From: Eledone cirrhosa
Taxonomy: Eukaryota
NCBI GenBank assembly: GCA_964016885.1
Contig: OZ024744.1
Coordinates: forward strand, 105,648,001-105,712,000
DNA length: 64,000 nucleotides
Direction: 5' to 3'
Shown here: piece after piece, positions 1 through 34,180 of the stretch
Position numbering within the stretch: the first letter of the stretch is position 1
How the letters are laid out: the number at the start of each line of letters is the position of its first letter
The notes under the pieces: generated by a model
What the model was told of the DNA's origin: nothing
Seen by the model: only the letters and a program-made list of their open reading frames with translations
Databases searched by the model: none
Translations under genes and position numbers: made by a program

Positions 1-3000
1 ACCTACCATCGAATTATCTACCTGCAGTAGAATTATCTACCTACCATAGAACTATCTACCTACCATCGAATTATCTACCTGCAGTAGAATTATCTACCTA
101 CCATAGAATTATCTACCTGCGGTAGAATTATCAACCTACCATAGAATTATCTACCTAGCATAGAATCATCTACCTACCATAGAATTATCTACCTACTGTA
201 GAGCTATCTAGCTACCATAGAATTATCTAGATACAGTAGATTTATCTACCTACCATAGAATTATCTACCTACATTAGAATTATCTAGCTACCATAGAATT
301 ATCTACCTACTATAGAATTATCTACCCACCATAGAATTATCTACCCACCATAGAATTATCTACCTACAGTAGAATTATCTACCCACAATAGAATTATCTA
401 CGTACCATAGAATTATCTATCTACCATAGAATTATCTACCTAACTTAGGATTATCTACCTGCAATAGGATTATCTACCTGCAATAGAATTATCAACCTGC
501 AGTAGCATTATCTACCTGCAATAGAATTATCTACCTACCATCGAATTATCTACCTGCAGTAGAATTATCTACCTACCATAGAATTATCTAACTGCGGTAG
601 AATTATCAACCTACCATGGAATCATCTACCTACCATAGAATTATCTACCTACAGTTTAATTATCTACCCACCATAGAATTTTCTACCTACAGTAGAATTA
701 TCTACCTACCATAGAATTATCTACCTACCATAGAATTATCTACCTACAGTAGAATTATCTACCTACCATAGAATTATCTAGCTACCATAAAATTATCTAC
801 CAACCATAGAAATATCTACCTACCATAGAATTATCTACCAACCATAGAAATATCTAGCTACCATAAAATTATCTACCTACCCTAGAATTATCTACCTATA
901 GTAGAATTATCTACCTACCATAGAATTATCTACCTACTATACAATTATCTACCTACTGTAGAATTATCTACCTACCATAGAATTATCTACCTACAGTTGA
1001 ATTTTCTCCCTACAGTAGAATCATCTTCCTACCATAGAATTATCTATCTAGCATAGAATTATCTACCTGCAGTAGAATTATCTAGCTACCATAGAATTAT
1101 CTAGCTACCATAGAATTATCTACCTACCATAGAATTCTCTACATACAGTAGAGTTATCTACCTACCATAGAGTTATCTACCTACCATGGAATTAACTACC
1201 TACCATAGAATTATCTACCTGCCATAGAATTATCTATCTACTGTAGAAGTTTCTACCTGCCATAGAATTATCTACCTACAGTAGAATTACCTACCTCACA
1301 TAGAATTATATACCTACCATAGAATTATATACCTACAATAGAATTATCTACCTACTATAGAATTATCTACCTACAGTGGAAAAATCTACCTAACGTAGAA
1401 TTATCTGCCTATCATAGAATAATCTACCTGCAGTAGAATTATCTACCTACCATAGAATTATCTACCTGCACCAGAATTATCTACCTACTGTAGAATTAGC
1501 TACACACCATAGAATTAGCTACCCACTATAGAATTATCTACCTACTATAGAATTATCTACCTACCATAGAATTATCTACCTACAGTAGAGTTATCTACCG
1601 ACCATAAAATTAACTACCCACCATAGAATTATCTAGCTACAGTAGAATTATCTACCTACCATAGAATTATCTACCTACCATAGAATTATCTACCTACAAT
1701 AGAATTATCTACCCACCATTGAATTATCTACCTGCCATAGAATTATCTACCTGCCATAGAATTATCTACCTGCCATAGAATTATCTACCTACCATAGAAT
1801 TATCTACCTACCATAGAATTATCTACCTACCATAGAATTATCTAGATACAGTAGAGTTATCTATCTACCACAGAATTACCTACCCACAGTATAGTTATCT
1901 ACCTACCATAGAATTATCTACCTACTGTAGAATTATCTAACTAACATAAAATTATCTACCTACAGTAGAATTATCTACCCACCATAGAATTATCTACCTA
2001 CCATAGAATTATCTACCTACCATAGAATTATCTACCTAACATAGGATTATCTACCTGCAGTAGAATTATCTACCTGCAGTAGAATTATCTACCTACCATA
2101 GAATTATCTACCTGCTGTAGAATTATCTACCTACCATAGAATTATCTACCTACAGTAGAATCATCTATCTACCATAGAATTATCTAGCTACGATAGAATC
2201 ATCTACCTACCATAGAATTATCTACCCACCATAGAGTTATCTACCTACCATAGAACTATCTAGCTACAGTAGAATTATCTACCTACAGTAGAATTATCTA
2301 CCTACCATAGAATTATCTACCTGCAGTAGAATTATCTACCTACCATAGAATTATCTACCTACCATAGAATTATCTACCTACTGTAGAATTATCTACCTAC
2401 CTACCATAAAATTATAAAGCTACCATAGAATTATCTACCTACCATACAATTATCTACCGACCACAGAATTATAAAGCTACCATAGAATTATCTATCTACC
2501 ATAGAATTATTTACCTAGCATAGAATCATCTACCTACCATAGAATTATCTACCTACTGTAGAGCTATCTAGCTACCATAGAATTATCGAGATACAGTAGA
2601 TTTATCTACCTACCATAGAATTATCTACCTACTGTAGAATTATCTACCCACCATAGAATTATCTACCCACCATAGAATTATCTACCTACAGTAGAATTAT
2701 CTACCCACAATAGAATTATCTACGTACATAGAATTATCTATCTACCATAGAATTATCTACCTAACTTAGGATTATCTACCTGCAATAGGATTATCTACCT
2801 GCAATAGAATTATCAACCTGCAGTAGAATTATCTACCTGCAATAGAATTATCTACCTACCATCGAATTATCTACCTGCAGTAGAATTATCTACCTACCAT
2901 AGAACTATCTACCTACCATCGAATTATCTACCTGCAGTAGAATTATCTACCTACCATAGAATTATCTACCTGCGGTAGAATTATCAACCTACCATAGAAT

Positions 3001-6000
3001 TATCTACCTAGCATAGAATCATCTACCTACCATAGAATTATCTACCTACTGTAGAGCTATCTAGCTACCATAGAATTATCTAGATACAGTAGATTTATCT
3101 ACCTACCATAGAATTATCTACCTACATTAGAATTATCTAGCTACCATAGAATTATCTACCTACTATAGAATTATCTACCCACCATAGAATTATCTACCCA
3201 CCATAGAATTATCTACCTACAGTAGAATTATCTACCCACAATAGAATTATCTACGTACCATAGAATTATCTATCTACCATAGAATTATCTACCTAACTTA
3301 GGATTATCTACCTGCAATAGGATTATCTACCTGCAATAGAATTATCAACCTGCAGTAGCATTATCTACCTGCAATAGAATTATCTACCTACCATCGAATT
3401 ATCTACCTGCAGTAGAATTATCTACCTACCATAGAATTATCTAACTGCGGTAGAATTATCAACCTACCATGGAATCATCTACCTACCATAGAATTATCTA
3501 CCTACAGTTTAATTATCTACCCACCATAGAATTTTCTACCTACAGTAGAATTATCTACCTACCATAGAATTATCTACCTACCATAGAATTATCTACCTAC
3601 AGTAGAATTATCTACCTACCATAGAATTATCTAGCTACCATAAAATTATCTACCAACCATAGAAATATCTACCTACCATAGAATTATCTACCAACCATAG
3701 AAATATCTAGCTACCATAAAATTATCTACCTACCCTAGAATTATCTACCTATAGTAGAATTATCTACCTACCATAGAATTATCTACCTACTATACAATTA
3801 TCTACCTACTGTAGAATTATCTACCTACCATAGAATTATCTACCTACAGTTGAATTTTCTCCCTACAGTAGAATCATCTTCCTACCATAGAATTATCTAT
3901 CTAGCATAGAATTATCTACCTGCAGTAGAATTATCTAGCTACCATAGAATTATCTAGCTACCATAGAATTATCTACCTACCATAGAATTCTCTACATACA
4001 GTAGAGTTATCTACCTACCATAGAGTTATCTACCTACCATGGAATTAACTACCTACCATAGAATTATCTACCTGCCATAGAATTATCTATCTACTGTAGA
4101 AGTTTCTACCTGCCATAGAATTATCTACCTACAGTAGAATTACCTACCTCACATAGAATTATATACCTACCATAGAATTATATACCTACAATAGAATTAT
4201 CTACCTACTATAGAATTATCTACCTACAGTGGAAAAATCTACCTAACGTAGAATTATCTGCCTATCATAGAATAATCTACCTGCAGTAGAATTATCTACC
4301 TACCATAGAATTATCTACCTGCACCAGAATTATCTACCTACTGTAGAATTAGCTACACACCATAGAATTAGCTACCCACTATAGAATTATCTACCTACTA
4401 TAGAATTATCTACCTACCATAGAATTATCTACCTACAGTAGAGTTATCTACCGACCATAAAATTAACTACCCACCATAGAATTATCTAGCTACAGTAGAA
4501 TTATCTACCTACCATAGAATTATCTACCTACCATAGAATTATCTACCTACAATAGAATTATCTACCCACCATTGAATTATCTACCTGCCATAGAATTATC
4601 TACCTGCCATAGAATTATCTACCTGCCATAGAATTATCTACCTACCATAGAATTATCTACCTACCATAGAATTATCTACCTACCATAGAATTATCTAGAT
4701 ACAGTAGAGTTATCTATCTACCACAGAATTACCTACCCACAGTATAGTTATCTACCTACCATAGAATTATCTACCTACTGTAGAATTATCTAACTAACAT
4801 AAAATTATCTACCTACAGTAGAATTATCTACCCACCATAGAATTATCTACCTACCATAGAATTATCTACCTACCATAGAATTATCTACCTAACATAGGAT
4901 TATCTACCTGCAGTAGAATTATCTACCTGCAGTAGAATTATCTACCTACCATAGAATTATCTACCTGCTGTAGAATTATCTACCTACCATAGAATTATCT
5001 ACCTACAGTAGAATCATCTATCTACCATAGAATTATCTAGCTACGATAGAATCATCTACCTACCATAGAATTATCTACCCACCATAGAGTTATCTACCTA
5101 CCATAGAACTATCTAGCTACAGTAGAATTATCTACCTACAGTAGAATTATCTACCTACCATAGAATTATCTACCTGCAGTAGAATTATCTACCTACCATA
5201 GAATTATCTACCTACCATAGAATTATCTACCTACTGTAGAATTATCTACCTACCTACCATAAAATTATAAAGCTACCATAGAATTATCTACCTACCATAC
5301 AATTATCTACCGACCACAGAATTATAAAGCTACCATAGAATTATCTATCTACCATAGAATTATTTACCTAGCATAGAATCATCTACCTACCATAGAATTA
5401 TCTACCTACTGTAGAGCTATCTAGCTACCATAGAATTATCGAGATACAGTAGATTTATCTACCTACCATAGAATTATCTACCTACTGTAGAATTATCTAC
5501 CCACCATAGAATTATCTACCCACCATAGAATTATCTACCTACAGTAGAATTATCTACCCACAATAGAATTATCTACGTACCATAGAATTATCTATCTACC
5601 ATAGAATTATCTACCTAACTTAGGATTATCTACCTGCAATAGGATTATCTACCTGCAATAGAATTGTCAACCTGCAGTAGAATTATCTACCTGCAATAGA
5701 ATTATCTACCTACCATCGAATTATCTACCTGCAGTAGAATTATCTACCTACCATCGAATTATCTACCTGCAGTAGAATTATCTACCTACCATAGAATTAT
5801 CTACCTGCGGTAGAATTATCACCCTACCATAGAATTATCTACCTACAGTAGAATCATCTATCTACCATAGAATTATCTACCTTCCATAGAATTATCTACC
5901 TGCAGTAGAATTATCTACCATAGAATTATCAACCTGCAGTAGAATTATCTACCTGCAATAGAATTATCTACCTACCATCGAATTATCTACCTACCATAGA

Positions 6001-9000
6001 ATTACCTACCTGCGGTAGAATTATCAACCTACCATAGAATTATCTACCTACAGTAGAATCATCTAACTACCATAGAATCATCTACCTACCATAGAATTAT
6101 CTACTTACCATAGAATTATCTACCTACAGTAGAGTTATCTACCTACCATAGAATTATCTACCTACCATAGTTTTATCTACCTACAGTAGAATTATCTACC
6201 TACCATAGAATTATCTGCCTTCAGTAGAATTATCTACCTATTGTAGAATTAGCTACCGATCATAGAATTATCTACCCACCATATAATTATCTACCTACCA
6301 TAGAATTATCTATCTACAGTAGAATTATCTACCTGCCATTGAATTATCTACCTACAGTAGAATTATCTACCTACCATAGAATGATCTATCTACCATAGAA
6401 TTATCTACTTACCATAGAATTATCTCCCTACCATAGAATTATCTACCTACCATAGAATTATCTACCAGCAGTAGAATTATCTACCTACAATAGAATTATC
6501 TACGTACAGTAGAATTATCTACCTACAGTAGTGTTATATACCTACCATAGAATTATCTACCTACCTTAGAATTATCTACCCACCATAGAATTATCTACCC
6601 ACCATAGAATTATCTACCTGCCATAGAATTATCTACCTACCATAGCATTATCTATTTACCATAGAATTATCTATCTACCATAGAATTATCTATCTACCAT
6701 AGAATTATCTACCTACCATAGAATTATCTACCTACCATAGAATTATCTACCATAGAATTATCTACCTGCAGTAGAATTATCTACCTGCAATAGAATTATC
6801 TACCTACCATCGAATTATCTACCTGCAGTAGAATTATCTACCTACCATAGAATTATCTACCTGCGGTAGAATTATCAACCTACCATACATTCATCTACCT
6901 ACCATAGAATTATCTACCTACAGTTTAATTATCTACCCACCATAGAATTATCTACCAACCATAGAAATATTAAGCTACCATAAAATTATCTACCTACCCT
7001 AGAATTATCTACCTATAGTAGAACTATCTACCTACAGTAGAATTATCTACCTGCAGTAGAATTATCTACCTACAATAGAATTATCTACCTACTATACAAT
7101 TATCTACCTACTGTAGAATTATCTACCTACCATAGAATTATCTACCTACCATAGAATTATCTACCTACCATAGAATTATCTACCTGCAGTAGAATTATCT
7201 AGCTACCATAGAATTATCTAGCTACCATAGAATTATCTACCTACCATAGAATTCTCTACATACAGTAGAGTTATCTACCTACCATAGAGTTATCTACCTA
7301 CCATGGAATTAACTACCTACCATAGAATTATCTACCTACCATAGAATTATCTATCTACTGTAGAGGTTTCTACCTGCCATAGAATTATCTACCTACAGTA
7401 GAATTACCTACCTCACATAGAATTATATACCTACCATAGAATTATATACCTACAATAGAATTATCTACCTACTATAGAATTATCTACCTACAGTGGAATA
7501 ATCTACCTAACGTAGAATTATCTGCCTATCATAGAATAATCTACCTGCAGTAGAATTATCTACCTACCATAGAATTATCTACCTGCACCAGAATTATCTA
7601 CCTACTGTAGAATTAGCTACACACCATAGAATTAGCTACCCACTATAGAATTATCTACCTACTATAGAATTATCTACCTACCATAGAATTATCTACCTAC
7701 AGTAGAGTTATCTACCCACCATAGAATTATCTAGCTACAGTAGAATAATCTACCTAACATAGAATTATCTACCTACCATAGAATTATCTACCTACAATAG
7801 AATTATCTACCCACCATAGAATTATCTACCTGCCATAGAATTATCTACCTGCCATAGAATTATCTACCTGCCATAGAAATATCTACCTACCATAGAATTA
7901 TCTACCTACCATAGAATTATCTACCTACCATAGAATTATCTCGATACAGTAGAGTTATCTATCTACCATAGAATTACCTACCCACAGTAGAGTTATCTAC
8001 CTACCATAGAATTAACCACCTACTGTAGAATTATCTAACTAACATAAAATTATCTACCTACAGTAGAATTATCTACCCACCATAGAATTATCTACCTACC
8101 ATAGAATTATCTATCTACCATAGAATTATCTACCTAACATAGGATTATCTACCTGCAGTAGAATTATCTACCTACCATAGAATTATCTACCTACAGTAGA
8201 ATCATCTATCTACCATAGAATTATCTAGCTACGATAGAATCATCTACCTACCATAGAATTATCTACCCACCATAGAGTTATCTACCTACCATAGAACTAT
8301 CTAGCTACAGTAGAATTATCTACCTACAGTAGAATTATCTACCTACCATAGAATTATCTACCTGCAGTAGAATTATCTACCTACCATAGAATTATCTACC
8401 TACCATAGAATTATCTACCTACTGTAGAATTATCTACCTACCTACCATAAAATTATAAAGCTACCATAGAATTATCTACCTACCATAGCATTATCTAATC
8501 TACAGTAGAATTATCTACCCGCAGTAGAATTATGTACCTGCGATAGAATTATCTACCTACCATAGAATTATTTACCTATTGTAGAATTATCTACCTACCA
8601 TAGAATTATCTAACCTACAGTAGAATTATCTACCTACCATAGAATTATCTACCTACCATAGAATTATCTACCTACCATAGAATTATCTACCTACCATAGA
8701 ATTATCTAACCTACAGTAGAATTATCTACCTACCATAGAATTATCTACCTACAGTAGAGTTATCTACTTACCATATAATTAACTATCTATCATAGAATTA
8801 TCTACCTACCATAGAATTAAATACCTACCATAGAATCATCTACTTACCATAGAATTATCTACCTACCATAGAATTATCTACTTACCATAGAATTATCTAC
8901 CTACCAATCATAGAATTAACTACCTACCATAGAATTATCCACCTACCATAGAACTATCTACCTACCATAGAATTATATAGCTACCATAGAATTATCTACC

Positions 9001-9822
9001 TACCATAGAATTATCTACCTACAGTAGAGTTATCTACCTACCATAGAATTTTCTAACTACAGTAGCATTGTCTACCACCCATAGAATTATCTACCAGCAG
9101 TAGAATTACCTACCTACGGTAGAATTATCTACCCACCATAGAATTATCTACCTATCATAGAATTATCTACCTACAGTAGAATTATCTATCTACCATAGAA
9201 TTATCTATCTACCATAGAATTATCTACCTACAATAGAATGATCTACCTACCACAGAATTATCTACCTACAGTAGAATTATTTACCTACAGTAGAATTATC
9301 AACCTACCATAGAATTATCTACCTACCATAGAATTATCTACCTACCATAGAATTATCTACCTACCATAGAATTATCTACCTGCAGTAGAATTATCTACCT
9401 ACCATAGAATTATCTACCTCCAGTAGAATTATCTAGCTACCATAGAATTATCCACCTACAGTAGAATTATCTCCCCACCTAGAATTATCTACCCACCATA
9501 GAATTATCTACCCACCATAGAATTATCTACCTACCACAAAATGATTTACGTACAGTAGAATTATTTACCTACAGTAGAATTATCTACCTACCATAGAATT
9601 ATCTAGCTACCATAGAATTATCTACCTACTATAATTCTATGGTAGGTAGTTAACTCTATGGTAGGTAGATAATTCTATGGTAGGGAGATAACTCTACTGT
9701 AGGTAGATAATTCTATGGTAGGTAGATAACTCTACTGCAGGTATATAATTCTTATGCTAGGTCGATAACTCTATCGCAGATATATAATTCTATGGTAGGT
9801 TGAATTATCTAGCTACAGTAGA
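1..9822. repeat. 19-bp tandem satellite (consensus TAGAATTATCTACCTACCA), about 515 monomers, with higher-order structure and a terminal inverted block
   Basis: Monomer directly visible throughout. Diagnostic variants recur at a 2853-bp spacing (CTACAGTGGA at 1371 and 4224). The reverse-complement monomer TGGTAGGTAGATAATTCTA occupies about 9631-9800. Confidence 0.98.
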
Positions 9823-13995: not shown

Positions 13996-14106
13996 GCCTT
14001 CATATATATATATATATATGTAAAAGTTCTATTTAAATTGTTGGGATACAACAAGCAAATATTTTTATAACTGATATAAAGCACTCAACAAATAATTGGA
14101 GTAAAA

Positions 14107-14438
14107 ATACGATATTAACAAATGGAAACTATATTTATAAAACCATATTTATTTCATTATACATATTTCAAGGACACCAAGTTAAATTATGGTGTGCTTT
14201 CATCAGATAAAATATAATATAGAGCAGTTTTATAAATAAATATTGACATACTCTTAAAGAATGCAACCATTACGGGAGCTTCCAACAGTAATGGTTGCAT
14301 TCTTTAAGGGTATGCCAATATTTATTTATAAAACTGCTCTATATTATATTATATTTTATCTGATGAAAGCACACCATAATTTAACTTGGTGTCCTTGAAA
14401 TAAATATGGTTTTATAAATATAGTTTCCATTTGTTAAT

Positions 14439-14445
<7 letters not shown>
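14107..14445. repeat. Long inverted repeat (arms 14107-14273 and 14288-14445) of a hammerhead-bearing element; a third, diverged copy follows at 14478-14650
   Basis: The arms are reverse complements apart from a few substitutions, a 14-bp deletion and a 5-bp insertion. (TA)n lies at the right boundary and about 90 bp to the left. Confidence 0.92.
14150..14214 (-). ncRNA. Type I hammerhead ribozyme motif
   Basis: Minus strand reads TATTTTAT-CTGATGA-AAGcACACCA(loop)TGGTGTcCTT-GAAA-TAtgTA-TA^-ATGAAATA. All core boxes are present, stems I, II and III pair, and the cleavage triplet is AUA. Confidence 0.75.
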
Positions 14446-14481
<36 letters not shown>

Positions 14482-14520
14482 GATATTAATAAATGGAAAC
14501 TATATTTATAAAACCATATT

Positions 14521-14585
14521 TATTTCATTATACATATTTCAGGGATACCACATTAAATTATGGTATGCCTTCATCAGACAAAATA
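14521..14585 (-). ncRNA. Type I hammerhead ribozyme motif (diverged paralogue)
   Basis: Minus strand reads TATTTTGT-CTGATGA-AGGcATACCA(loop)TGGTATcCCT-GAAA-TAtgTA-TA^-ATGAAATA. It has two compensatory pair changes in stem II relative to 14150-14214. Confidence 0.75.
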
Positions 14586-15204
14586 CAATATATAACAGTT
14601 TTACAAATAGCTTTGACGTACCCTTTTAAAATACAACCATTACTTTTGGAGGCTGTCTGGATAGTGATTTGTTTATATAATAAGTCATAGTGTTAAGCAC
14701 AATTAGAAAAAGGCGGAGAGAAAGAAAAAGAAAAAAGACGGAGAGAGAGAAAGAAAACCTGGAGAAATATCGGAGAGAGAGAGAAATGTATGGAGAAAAG
14801 AAAGAGATAAATAAAGATAGGAGAAAATAAAAAATAAAAAAGAAAGAAAAGGAAGGAATAAGAAAAACAAAGGAAAGCAACAGAGAGATATCAAGTCATC
14901 ATACAGAAAGAAATACTATATATAGAGAGAGAGAGGGGGGGGGGGGCAGTGACAACTTTACGTCATGTCATATTAAGTTGCGTTAACAATTTATATGAAA
15001 TGAATAATAAAAATATAAATATAAGTATCAATATTCATGAATGGGACATAGATATATAATATGAGAAATTAAACATTGTTCAATAATGACCATATGTTTA
15101 GTTTAGAAACTTGAGATCAATATACCAAAATCTGAGTTCAAAATGTACCCTTGCTATAGAGATTAGTATTTTATGCAAAGACATACAAATATATATCCAG
15201 AGTT

Positions 15205-27764: not shown

Positions 27765-27948
27765 GGCGGTGGATTGGCAGTATCGGTAGAGGGTCGGACG
27801 CCATGCTTTCAAGCATAGTTACGTCTCTTTACGATCTGAGTTCAAATCCCGCTGAGGTTGACTTTGCCTTTCATCCTTACGGGGTCGATAAAATAAAGTA
27901 CCAGTAATGCACTGGGTAATTGCTGGCCTTGTGCCTAAAGTAGAAACA
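27765..27948 (+). mobile_element. Young tRNA-derived SINE with 24-bp TSD
   Basis: A-box-like TGGCAGTATCGG, B-box GAGTTCAAATC and central CTTTGCCTTTCATCCTTACGGGGTCGATAAAATAAAGTACCAG. TSD ATTATTTAACATGAGATTTAAAAG at 27741-27764 and 27949-27972. Confidence 0.92.
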
Positions 27949-28813: not shown

Positions 28814-28998
28814 TGTTTCTACTTTTGGCACAAGGCCAGCAATTACCCAGTACATTACTGGTACTTTATTTTATCGACCCCGTAAGGATGAAAGGCAAAG
28901 TTAACCTTGGAGGGATTTGAACTCAGTCCGTAAAGGGACGTAACTCTATGCTAGAAAGCATGGCGTCCGACCCTCTACTGATACTGCCAATCCACTGC
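28814..28998 (-). mobile_element. Young tRNA SINE (same family as 27765)
   Basis: Reverse complement of the 27765 element. TSD CCTTTAAGATTGCAATAAT at 28795-28813 and 28999-29017. Confidence 0.92.
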
Positions 28999-30559: not shown

Positions 30560-31355
30560 TGTGTGTGATAAAACAAACAGATAGATAGGCATACAGATCA
30601 GGGACCAAAGTAAAGTGCATCTTATCAACACCAAACTGTTGTTAGTAAGGACAGCAGAACAAACAGAACAGACAGACAGATCAGAGAGTGAAGTAAAGAA
30701 TGTTCTATTGACACCAGGCCACTGCTAGAAACTATCGCAGTGTTGCCCAGCATGCCTATTAAAGTCACCTGCAATGATTATGAAGTCACTATCACTCATT
30801 AGGGAGGTAATGTGCATTAGAGATTCGTTAAATCCATTTTTTAGTTCATCTGACAGTCCAGATTGAGGTGTATATACAGATATATGTGTTTCTACTTTAG
30901 GCACAAGGCCAGCAATTATCCCAGTGCATTACTGGTACTTTATTTTATCGACCCCGTAAGGATGAAAGGCAAAGTCAACCTCGGCGGGATTTGAACTCAG
31001 ATCGTAAAGGGACGTAACTATGCTGGAAAGCATGGCGTCCGACCCTCTACCGATACTGCCAATCCACCGCCGTACAAAGTGTATATACAGATATAATTGG
31101 TAGAGTTGTTCTATTTAGTACTAATCTAAGTTTAATTATTCTATCATTTACTATATTTATAGAAATTACTTTATCTACCCATTTTACAGCTAACATGATA
31201 CCTACTCCAACCAGCCTGTTGTCATTGCCCACCCAGAAACATTTGTAGCATAGTTTTTTCCCTGCAAGAAGTCTAGTTGACATTCCTCTCCATACAACAA
31301 CTTATCCTGATCTTCCTTTCATTGTGCCTACATTGATTGTGGCAGCTCTGAAGTT
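30560..31355 (-). mobile_element. Decayed RTE LINE endonuclease region, interrupted by a SINE
   Basis: FRAATINVGTMKGRSG, GVGIMLAVKW, DRIIKLRLV..IISVYTPQSG and AGDFNRHAG on the minus strand. Confidence 0.8.
30885..31078 (-). mobile_element. Young tRNA SINE with 17-bp TSD
   Basis: TSD GTGTATATACAGATATA at 30868-30884 and 31079-31095. Confidence 0.92.
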
Positions 31356-31598: not shown

Positions 31599-32022
31599 AC
31601 TATGAGTTAAGAGTTTAAGACATTTTCTCACTACTGTGGTTTGATTGGATTAGCAGGATATGGTGGTAAGGTGGAGGGGAGGAGGTGAGATGTAAAATAA
31701 GAGATGAGCCAGAGGCACCGACCATATAGAAGCTGCTAAAGATATGTCCAAATGTTATATATAAATAAATGGAGGGAATAAGAAAATATGAAAGAGATAG
31801 AGCTGGACCGCATGTTTATCTACTGAAGGGAACATATAAAGTTGAAGGAAAAAAAGCTTTTACACACTTTTTTATTAAGCCAGTACAACAGGTGTGTATG
31901 TATATATGTGTGTGTGTGTGTGTGTGTGCATATGTGGTTGATGCACTTATTAATCTACGTAAGAGCGTATATGGATTATGGATGTACGTATAGATGTGCA
32001 TGTGGTTTTATGTATGTATGTA

Positions 32023-32053
<31 letters not shown>

Positions 32054-32110
32054 TTTCCTCATTATACCTTTCATTTTTAATAGATATCAATTTCAAATGT
32101 TTATATCTAG

Positions 32111-32194
32111 ATAACTATTTCATCTGATGAACGGGCTAGACGTTTCTGTAAGGATCGTCTAGTTTCTTGAAACCTTTGGTAATGAAATAATTAT
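32111..32194 (+). ncRNA. Complete type I hammerhead ribozyme motif in the intron upstream of the SIPA1L exon
   Basis: Stem I ATAACTATTTCAT/ATGAAATAATTAT pairs 12 of 13. CTGATGA at 32124-32130. Stem II GGGCTAGACG/CGTCTAGTTT. GAAA at 32169-32172. Stem III ACC-ttt-GGT. Cleavage triplet GUA ends at 32181. Confidence 0.8.
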
Positions 32195-32275
32195 ATTGTG
32201 TTGTTTATTATGTAATTAAATAGCTCTGTACTATACATAGAGCACTCTTCTTTCCTTTACCTTTTCTACAGAAAT

Positions 32276-32339
<64 letters not shown>

Positions 32340-32409
32340 ATCTTTTATAGATAAAATTAAAATTATTTTATTTTATTTCTCCTAATTTCTATTTTTGTTT
32401 CTTCCACAG

Positions 32410-32690
32410 GTCTTGCTGTATTGCATTTTGGCAGCCTTTCAGTTTTACATGCTTGGAGAGGACAATTTCTTTGAAACAATGATTCCAGCAAATATAGCTA
32501 ATTTTCTAGCTATATTAACATTACTAAATCCACAAAATTCTTCAGTTATATTCAATTAATTTGGTAATGAAAAGATTTTTGATTATCATGAAACTTTGGA
32601 AATATTTACTGTTGTAATTTCAATTTAATATAAATTTGAAAAAAATTTCGTCTTCGTGAAAAGTAGAAATTAACAACCACCATTACTGTC

Positions 32691-32775: not shown

Positions 32776-34180
32776 ATGGCTTCAGATGAACAAGCAGTTC
32801 CATCAAAGAGAAGGGTAGGTAGGTGCTCTTCGTATATAATATCTTTGGACACATCTCCCCCTAGGACGAAGAAATCTGCAGATTATGGTCAGAAACAGGT
32901 GTTAAATGAGAAGGCGTCTAATGTCTGTGATGATGAAAGCGATGTATGTAGACACCATAATCAATCAGATGATAATGGTGGAGATAGAGATTATTTTCAA
33001 ACCCGGGAAAACTTTCAACGAACTAGTTTGAGGTATCTTGAAATGCATCGATCAAGCACAGAAAAATTTCTAGCCCGACACAAAGCAAGTTACAAGATCA
33101 ATCAATCACCTTCTGAGAAACCAGTTTCTACTCAGATGCCTAAAGTGCAAAAAGAAAGTAAAGTTGAACAGTTGAGTAGGGTTGGTCTACATCGGAGCAA
33201 TAGTAACTTAGAGATGGATAGTGTGGAGCATTCTGATGAAGATGTCTCTACAACTGTTGTTTCTTCACGCAGAGAATATGGAAGTACATCTTCACTTGAT
33301 ACTCTTCCAACAAATCATGAAGTTTTTTTTGACATGGTGAGAGATTTTAAACTGGGGAACCCAGATCAACGAAGTCCTGCTCCTCCAAAGCTCCTTGATG
33401 TCTTGCGAGGAAAACCAATGCCTGAAAAGCTGAATCAAAGCAGTCGCAGTGTTATGAAATCAGAATTTCTTTCTCCTTCTGAAAAAGATTCTGAAAGCAC
33501 CCAAAGTCCAAAGTTGAAAACAAAATTTAAGCACAAGGATCGCAAAGTACGTGCTAAGTCTATCACTGGAGAAGCTGGCTCAGGGATATTCCGAAAGTTT
33601 CGTGGTGCAAAAGTTGATGGATCTGATTTACCAATAAAAAATTCTGATGTATCTGATGGCTTTGATAGTCGTAATGAGGAGAGAATAATGCGTAAAGCAT
33701 TTGTTCATTTTGATTGTCAAAGTATTGGCATTAATGTGTATGATTTGATAGAGAAACGAAATAATGCAACAGAGAGGAAGAATACAACGACAGGTGCATC
33801 AGCTGCATCTGTTAATCGTAACAGTTACACGGGGGACAAAGATAATTCTGAATTGTGTTCTGATCAGGATGAAGGGGACAACAAAAGCAATAATTTAGTC
33901 TTGAGTTGTCCGTTTTTTCGAAATGAGCTGGGTGGCGAGGAGATTCGAAACATTAGCTTGTGTAAAGTCACAGCACAGAAACGAAACAAGCTACCTTCCA
34001 ACAAAGAGATAGAACAAGATGTTATTTATAGAAATTCTATTTGTACAGGAATCTCAATCTTGGACTCCTCTTTGAGCTCATCAGGTCAGCCACTGCCATC
34101 ATTTATAAAACACAAAGATTTCATTATAGAGTATGTGGATTACGGTGCTTACTATTACAGATCCTTTTTTTATGAAACTG
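32776..34180 (+). CDS. SIPA1L1: Signal-induced proliferation-associated 1-like (SPAR/SIPA1L, Rap GTPase-activating protein), large first coding exon (468 codons + 1 nt, phase-1 intron)
   Basis: GCCATGG Kozak start. SIPA1L family motifs REYGSTSSLD, FVHFDCQSI, RKNTTTGASAAS, GDNKSNNLVLSCPFFRNELGGE and IEYVDYGAYYYRSFFY. Donor G|GTAAGT at 34180/34181. The ORF tail to 34236 is intronic read-through. The gene is probably co-orthologous to vertebrate SIPA1L1/2/3. Confidence 0.93.

Follow-up and report, generated by a model that had tools for sequence, protein, structure and literature searches.

A young Penelope-like element hammerhead copy upstream of the first SIPA1L coding exon in Eledone cirrhosa, most likely a passive relic

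The SIPA1L locus and its hammerhead motif

The window, by which we mean the whole 64,000-nucleotide stretch of Eledone cirrhosa DNA under analysis, carries the first coding exon of a gene that a preliminary description of this DNA had named SIPA1L, and the name is borne out by 84% identity to an Octopus sinensis SIPA1L2 protein, with 22 alignment blocks extending the gene from 32776 to 199587 in window coordinates. Upstream of this exon and on the same strand, a type I hammerhead motif lies within a repeat copy that abuts a microsatellite (Table 1). The motif ends 215 nt, and its predicted cleavage site lies 228 nt, before a CAG ending at 32409. The preliminary description had placed the hammerhead about 215 nt from the splice acceptor of the gene; the distance to this CAG agrees, but the site is acceptor-like by sequence only. 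None of the contigs from relatives' presumed RNA runs joins at 32409/32410; these contigs reach the coding exon and not the UTR, the acceptor or the motif, and hence are silent on the acceptor. One relative's contig includes 505 letters upstream of 32746 that stay unaligned at 80%.

Table 1. Features at the hammerhead-bearing repeat and the start of SIPA1L (window coordinates)
Feature	Position	Strand	Details and basis
Pseudo-LTR copy, 5'-truncated, of a probable Hydra-type Penelope-like element (PLE)	31892-32277	+	~385 nt; similarity to L251 and other copies
Type I hammerhead	32111-32194	+	direct reading of the sequence
Stem I	5' strand 32111-32123; 3' strand 32182-32194	+	sequence; pair counts across copies
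Catalytic core C3-A9	32124-32130	+	CUGAUGA, intact; sequence
Long stem II	32131-32168	+	38 nt; base is A-U, then a C.U mismatch; sequence
Core G12-A15.1	32169-32172	+	GAAA; sequence
Stem III	32172-32180	+	3 bp (A-U, C-G, C-G) with UUU loop; sequence
GUA triplet	32179-32181	+	predicted cleavage after A32181; sequence
PLE tail	32223-32277	+	55 nt; many copies lack it and end at 32222
(GT)30 microsatellite at the 3' junction	32278-32337	+	repeat scan
Putative host splice acceptor	32380-32409	+	pyrimidine tract and CAG; acceptor-like sequence
First SIPA1L coding exon	32776-34180	+	ATG at 32776; relatives' contigs exit the window at 34180

The core positions of a type I hammerhead are all present: C3-U4-G5-A6-N7-G8-A9, G12-A13-A14, the A15.1-U16.1 pair (U32180) and H17 (A32181). 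With all helices, the core and the GUA site found on the plus strand, the complete sense-strand hammerhead of the preliminary description is confirmed. Stem I, described as 13 bp with one mismatch, has 12 pairs and a single C.A mismatch (32115/32190), with no other internal interruption. The mismatch noted near the core at the base of stem II is likewise real, and inherited: the closing pair 10.1-11.1, usually G-C in type I hammerheads, is A-U in 50 of 59 related copies, and the position next to it is unpaired in 57 of 58. A long stem II also stands, its stable upper part formed by 32136-32142 paired with 32156-32162, but the register first proposed for its base does not, the family favouring A-U, C.Y, G-C and G.U/A-U rather than GGG/UUU; the latter is what ViennaRNA prefers for the window copy alone.

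The core pattern occurs seven times in the window against 1.26 expected (0/100 shuffles), and a full-motif scan over 344 kb returned 22 motifs, compared with 0-3 in each of 10 resampled controls. The fold of the window motif has z = -2.08, with 6 of 200 shuffles equally stable. Rfam gave no match at gathering score across the window, and none of its hammerhead families came up in 31900-32450 at E<=10, a silence that is no argument against a hammerhead motif.

Between the coding exons of SIPA1L (70073-199176; L084-L090, L267-L273) the analysis detected 17 more motifs from several other families, 9 of them sense and 8 antisense. Sense-strand motifs are evidently common in the gene, at a density of about one per 20 kb. 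Because many of these 17 intronic motifs form inverted pairs, the balance of sense and antisense is a weak test. One sense motif lies ~600 nt before the last SIPA1L coding exon. Within the 344 kb, the family of the window motif has no intact partner and is represented only by pieces at about 182.7 kb and 202.6-202.8 kb.

A different hammerhead family, with a palindromic stem III, has three copies in inverted arrangement at 14095-14640 of the window, and the one on the plus strand, at 14360, no longer has its cleavage site or the usual stem III. The exit AUGAAAUA, reported earlier as common to these 14-kb copies and the window motif, does occur, but it is a minority variant in the family of the window motif (2 of 28 copies carry A at 32185), and the 14-kb motifs are another family. 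Among the loci examined, 33 alignments did not place this family before a Hydra-type ORF.

A dispersed repeat and its Penelope-like parent

The repeat around the window motif is dispersed through the genome. A search with 32050-32280 produced 2635 candidates, of which the 40 that were scored are 87-97% identical, apart from the window itself. Exact genome matches to the core pattern, in which 24 letters are fixed, number 751 (363 on the plus and 388 on the minus strand; control 0), a count that includes sister subfamilies, and another contig carries a copy identical over 61 nt of the core. The 5' part of the window copy is TG/TA-rich and blends into host microsatellite. At the other end, the remaining 19 best copies all terminate at the counterpart of 32277, beyond which lies (AC)n/(AT)n. 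A second end point, 32222, recurs in many copies, often the inverted partners, with (TA)n beyond, and in run X8 44 loose ends stopping there run on as (TA)n. The tail between these two end points runs on into the 5' UTR in ORF-bearing copies. Insertions of the family into (TA)n were seen; the window copy itself abuts (GT)n. The family thus combines partial tandems, 5' truncation, inverted 5' copies, an optional tail and a hammerhead in the pseudo-LTR; the truncation, the inverted copies and the optional tail are part of PLE anatomy as described in the accessible text of PMC8557442.

The tail of the window copy also contains, at 32245-32271, an acceptor-like pyrimidine tract and CAG (32269-32271), 138 nt upstream of the putative host acceptor and no poorer in pyrimidines than it (0.91 vs 0.82). 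The CAG is found in 5 of 13 full-length copies, and the site is a possible cryptic acceptor.

Most sampled copies lack an ORF and begin in microsatellite-like sequence, and an upstream walk from the longest copies ended in microsatellite. RT fragments of one kind adjoin the repeat at two loci (L038, L081), and searches from these fragments reached two more, L251 and L264. The L251 copy matches the window at 81% over 395 aligned columns and at 89% over 32069-32277, and lies ~100 nt before a broken RT/GIY-YIG ORF whose pieces span aa 1-704 of an intact 714-aa relative at 55-77% identity; in L264 a sister-subfamily repeat is likewise placed before the ORF. Additionally, the family hammerhead occurs in 10 of 17 ten-kb stretches around the top endonuclease matches, or in 8 of 14 after removal of three chosen partly for nearness to known copies, where 0.0025 are expected per 10 kb. 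These junctions identify the repeat as the pseudo-LTR of an EN+ Penelope-like element; the preliminary description was right to call the ribozyme retroelement-derived, and its source can be named.

The intact relative (L247-L249) is young and forms ~4.3-kb tandems. Its pseudo-LTR is related to the window repeat (74% over 32169-32277) and holds a hammerhead as well. Its ORF bears RWK, DKT and YRDD motifs, a CxCx5C linker, and CxxC and CxH (around E and N), without CCHH; RWK is also present in L251. The available account of the Hydra clade lists RWK, DKT, CxCx5C, CxxC, CxH and the lack of CCHH as its features (PMC8557442). Pfam recognized neither RT nor GIY-YIG in the 714-aa protein, and the homologues retrieved are almost all unnamed; the domains were judged, and the parent is assigned to the Hydra-type PLEs, by ORF motifs. 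The hammerhead of L247-L249 combines a U.A/U.A-rich stem II with a stem III of CCACUGG, and would suit tests of dimer cleavage.

Two young autonomous PLEs, with ORFs of 775 and 784 aa, and the L082 ORF were rejected as parents, having other or no hammerheads. The intact 775-aa element (L151, L153, L154) gives RVT_1 and GIY-YIG matches, and its pseudo-LTR holds two motifs that resemble hammerheads but have changes in the core, one combining U3 with G8 and the other U3 with A8. The intact 784-aa element (L152, L155, L156) is Hydra-like and forms ~3.5-kb tandems; motif scans detected no hammerhead in it, in contrast to Hydra elements, which are described as always hammerhead-bearing.

Decay across copies and prospects for cleavage

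Among 59 copies that were picked by the core pattern and are mutually related, 81.6% of cells in the helices are paired, a proportion reached in none of 500 shuffles, with stem I left open; the covariation score was matched in 1 of 500 shuffles, and the number of pairs changed on both sides in 46 of 500. A second sample of 30 copies was chosen by upstream sequence alone, and among the 29 that cover the motif (1 was dropped) the 12-nt core is kept in 13. Deviations amount to 15/298 (5.0%) in the core and 30/490 (6.1%) in the flank for 26 of the 30 copies (p=0.64), and to 2.8% and 6.0%, respectively, for 13 full-length copies (p=0.17). The family core decays at about the flank rate.

Over 32111-32277 the window copy is the least diverged of the 30 compared, the tail columns including truncated copies, and its 96-97% identity to dispersed copies, tail included, marks the element as young. 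Set against the commonest letters of the 13 full-length copies, it departs at 4 of 84 positions within the ribozyme and at 1 of 83 in the downstream flank, a comparison of low power that fits a young copy rather than one selectively kept. Its changes at 32138 and 32185 convert G.U into A-U, and both variants are known in other copies.

For stem III, the predicted energies are +0.4 kcal/mol as a hairpin and -5.1 kcal/mol as a self-complementary duplex. In isolation, predicted pair probabilities are 0.4 for stem III and about 0 for the A-U closing pair of stem II; that of stem I, with flanks, is 0-0.13. Such low values do not prove inactivity, since ViennaRNA ignores the tertiary core, and natural hammerhead variants with weak stem II bases exist (PMC3088659, in the part available). 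A stem III of three pairs is typical of PLE motifs thought to be poor at cleaving alone. For metazoan PLE hammerheads, the accessible literature reports no or low monomer cleavage and, in one test, weak cleavage as dimers with none as monomers (PMC4209133), and dimer pairing has been proposed for them (PMC4209133; review PMC6765202). For an anole PLE, the ribozyme is described as dispensable for insertion in vitro, with no reads ending at the cleavage site in the portion of the report available (PMC11167929). As modelled here, the window copy, as a single unit, most likely cleaves slowly or never.

What slow cleavage would mean for the host transcript can be gauged from reported cases, in which hammerhead cleavage of an intron left it able to splice, whereas a fast HDV ribozyme blocked splicing (accessible text of PMC2995048, citing Dye 2006 and Fong 2009). 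On this evidence the host would likely tolerate a slow motif located upstream of the branch region.

Interpretation and comparison with known hammerheads

Our conclusion, held with considerable confidence, is that the window motif belongs to a young 5'-truncated PLE hammerhead copy that precedes the first SIPA1L coding exon in sense orientation and is most probably a passive leftover, not a gene switch. The endonuclease of the parent would have nicked a TA/GT microsatellite at this site, and reverse transcription would have begun in the tail and halted after ~385 nt. In the tandem transcript of the parent, neighbouring hammerheads may pair via their self-complementary stem III and trim the RNA; a lone copy would be expected to cut too seldom, or not soon enough, to affect splicing because of its 3-bp stem III, the lone A-U before the stem II mismatch and competing folds. 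The preliminary description had singled out the motif as the best undescribed functional element, one cutting SIPA1L pre-mRNA. The analysis does not support this standing, in view of at least 751 related motifs, an inherited mismatch, a core decaying about like its flank, and nine other sense-strand motifs between coding exons of the same gene. Some observations count against the passive reading, namely the fully intact core, the low divergence of the copy, its two changes from G.U to A-U and, among the 13 full-length copies, a core that deviates less than the flank.

The PLE relic might nevertheless cleave SIPA1L pre-mRNA measurably by accident, with neutral or slightly harmful consequences, lowering or delaying splicing without being selected. 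The intact core, 12-pair stem I, GUA site and sense orientation to SIPA1L would permit this, as would a predicted cut 228 nt before the acceptor-like site, and fast ribozymes can abort splicing according to the available text of PMC2995048. We nonetheless regard accidental cleavage as unlikely in light of the weak stem III, weak stem II base and competing folds, the lack of an intact same-family dimer partner in 344 kb, and the coexistence of nine other sense motifs in SIPA1L. Tandem retrozymes of Xenopus are reported, in the accessible part of a preprint, as excluded from introns (bioRxiv 10.64898/2026.07.22.740005), an exclusion that counts against the passive reading by suggesting that selection can act on active hammerheads within genes. 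In a broader version, which we consider quite improbable, long nascent neuronal transcripts of octopods would be cut by intact retrotransposon hammerheads, alone or paired through palindromic stems III, and the window copy, which places a cleavage site and a new acceptor-like site close to the first coding exon, would be an early regulator step for SIPA1L. If pre-mRNA cleavage were shown, SIPA1L would offer a natural test of how well a long gene tolerates many self-cleaving motifs, and insight into the origin of conserved intronic ribozymes such as that of RECK.

It has a very low probability, in our judgement, that the repeat is a non-autonomous SINE-like or retrozyme-type element copied as a short unit via circular RNA. 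Most sampled copies do lack an ORF and start within microsatellite-like sequence, and animal retrozymes, as far as the available literature describes them, bear hammerheads of type I and are kin to the pseudo-LTRs of PLEs; the direct joining of copies to a PLE ORF (L251, L264) nevertheless weakens this proposal, as do 5' ends that vary between copies and the absence of head-to-tail arrays of 150-450-nt units from the loci compared, the window itself holding a single copy. Finally, a domesticated intronic ribozyme selected to regulate SIPA1L mRNA biogenesis, as proposed for amniote RECK and C10orf118, is hardly credible: the accessible literature offers precedent in conserved amniote intronic type I hammerheads thought to be retroelement-derived, one of them in a 5'-UTR intron (PMC6155905, PMC3088659), and the core is intact with two wobble-to-Watson-Crick changes, but the whole element, non-ribozyme tail included, is near-identical to dispersed copies, the 61-nt core recurs unchanged on another contig, and the low-powered site comparison detects no ribozyme-specific conservation within the family.

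By the features examined, then, the window motif is a PLE pseudo-LTR hammerhead, and its nearest published counterparts are those of Hydra PLEs, known from Hydra-1_Obim (Octopus bimaculoides), Penelope-2_HM and Penelope-5_HM (Craig et al. 2021, PMC8557442). As far as the accessible text of that study goes, both are type I, sense to the ORF and near the 3' end of the unit, and both families share (TA)n targets, inverted 5' copies and a tail. The stem III of three pairs around UUU recurs in Penelope-2_HM and Penelope-5_HM, that of Hydra-1_Obim (ACCA-A-UGGU) is likewise short and self-complementary, and in many Hydra-PLE motifs the base of stem II contains unpaired nucleotides. Unlike these motifs, the window copy has a longer stem I (12 pairs), a 38-nt stem II with internal loops and a mismatch that comes after an A-U pair. 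Its family also has a tail of about 55 nt rather than 30-40, and a unit of about 4.3 kb (in the intact relative) rather than under 3 kb. Judged by hammerhead sequence, the family is distinct from Hydra-1_Obim.

The minimal hammerheads of metazoan PLEs (Cervera and de la Pena 2014, PMC4209133) resemble the window family, in the part of that report available, in their long stem II and unstable palindromic stem III, their thousands of dispersed single copies from truncated PLEs and their opposite-strand pairs 100-700 bp apart; they differ in having a single extra base followed by G10.1-C11.1, absent from the window motif, whose stem III is a genuine helix of 3 bp and whose stem I is long. With the conserved intronic hammerheads of amniotes (RECK, C10orf118/CTCL and DTNB) the window motif has in common its type I fold, its sense orientation to the host gene, a retroelement-like origin and a position that is probably intronic, but the amniote motifs are described as conserved across birds and mammals, their defining trait, and as cleaving in vitro (PMC6155905, PMC3088659), in contrast to a young copy of a high-copy family, and the likeness is one of position only. 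Animal non-LTR retrozymes, in the available description (PMC7229834), share the type I hammerhead and the short AT-rich non-coding repeat; the window family, unlike them, shows no tandem arrays of 150-450-nt units and is tied to a coding PLE.

Literature searches, with most subscription papers outside their coverage, found no report of this PLE family or of a cephalopod intronic hammerhead. The analysis adds one more probable Hydra-type PLE family and a hammerhead variant to an octopus genome already known to hold such elements, and its value is one of annotation. It also cautions that cephalopod intronic hammerheads are common repeat debris, for which a copy-number check is needed.

Several minor observations concern other repeats. 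On the minus strand of L251, at 7322-7942, three identical hammerhead-like motifs spaced 310 nt apart form a possible tandem retrozyme. Short SINE-like repeats occupy 27835-27915, 28846-28945 and 30915-31010 of the window, where thousands of contigs from the relatives' presumed RNA runs pile up. The first part of the window (1-9800) holds a satellite whose 19-bp unit recurs about 506 times and of which a short block, at 9631-9800, is inverted.
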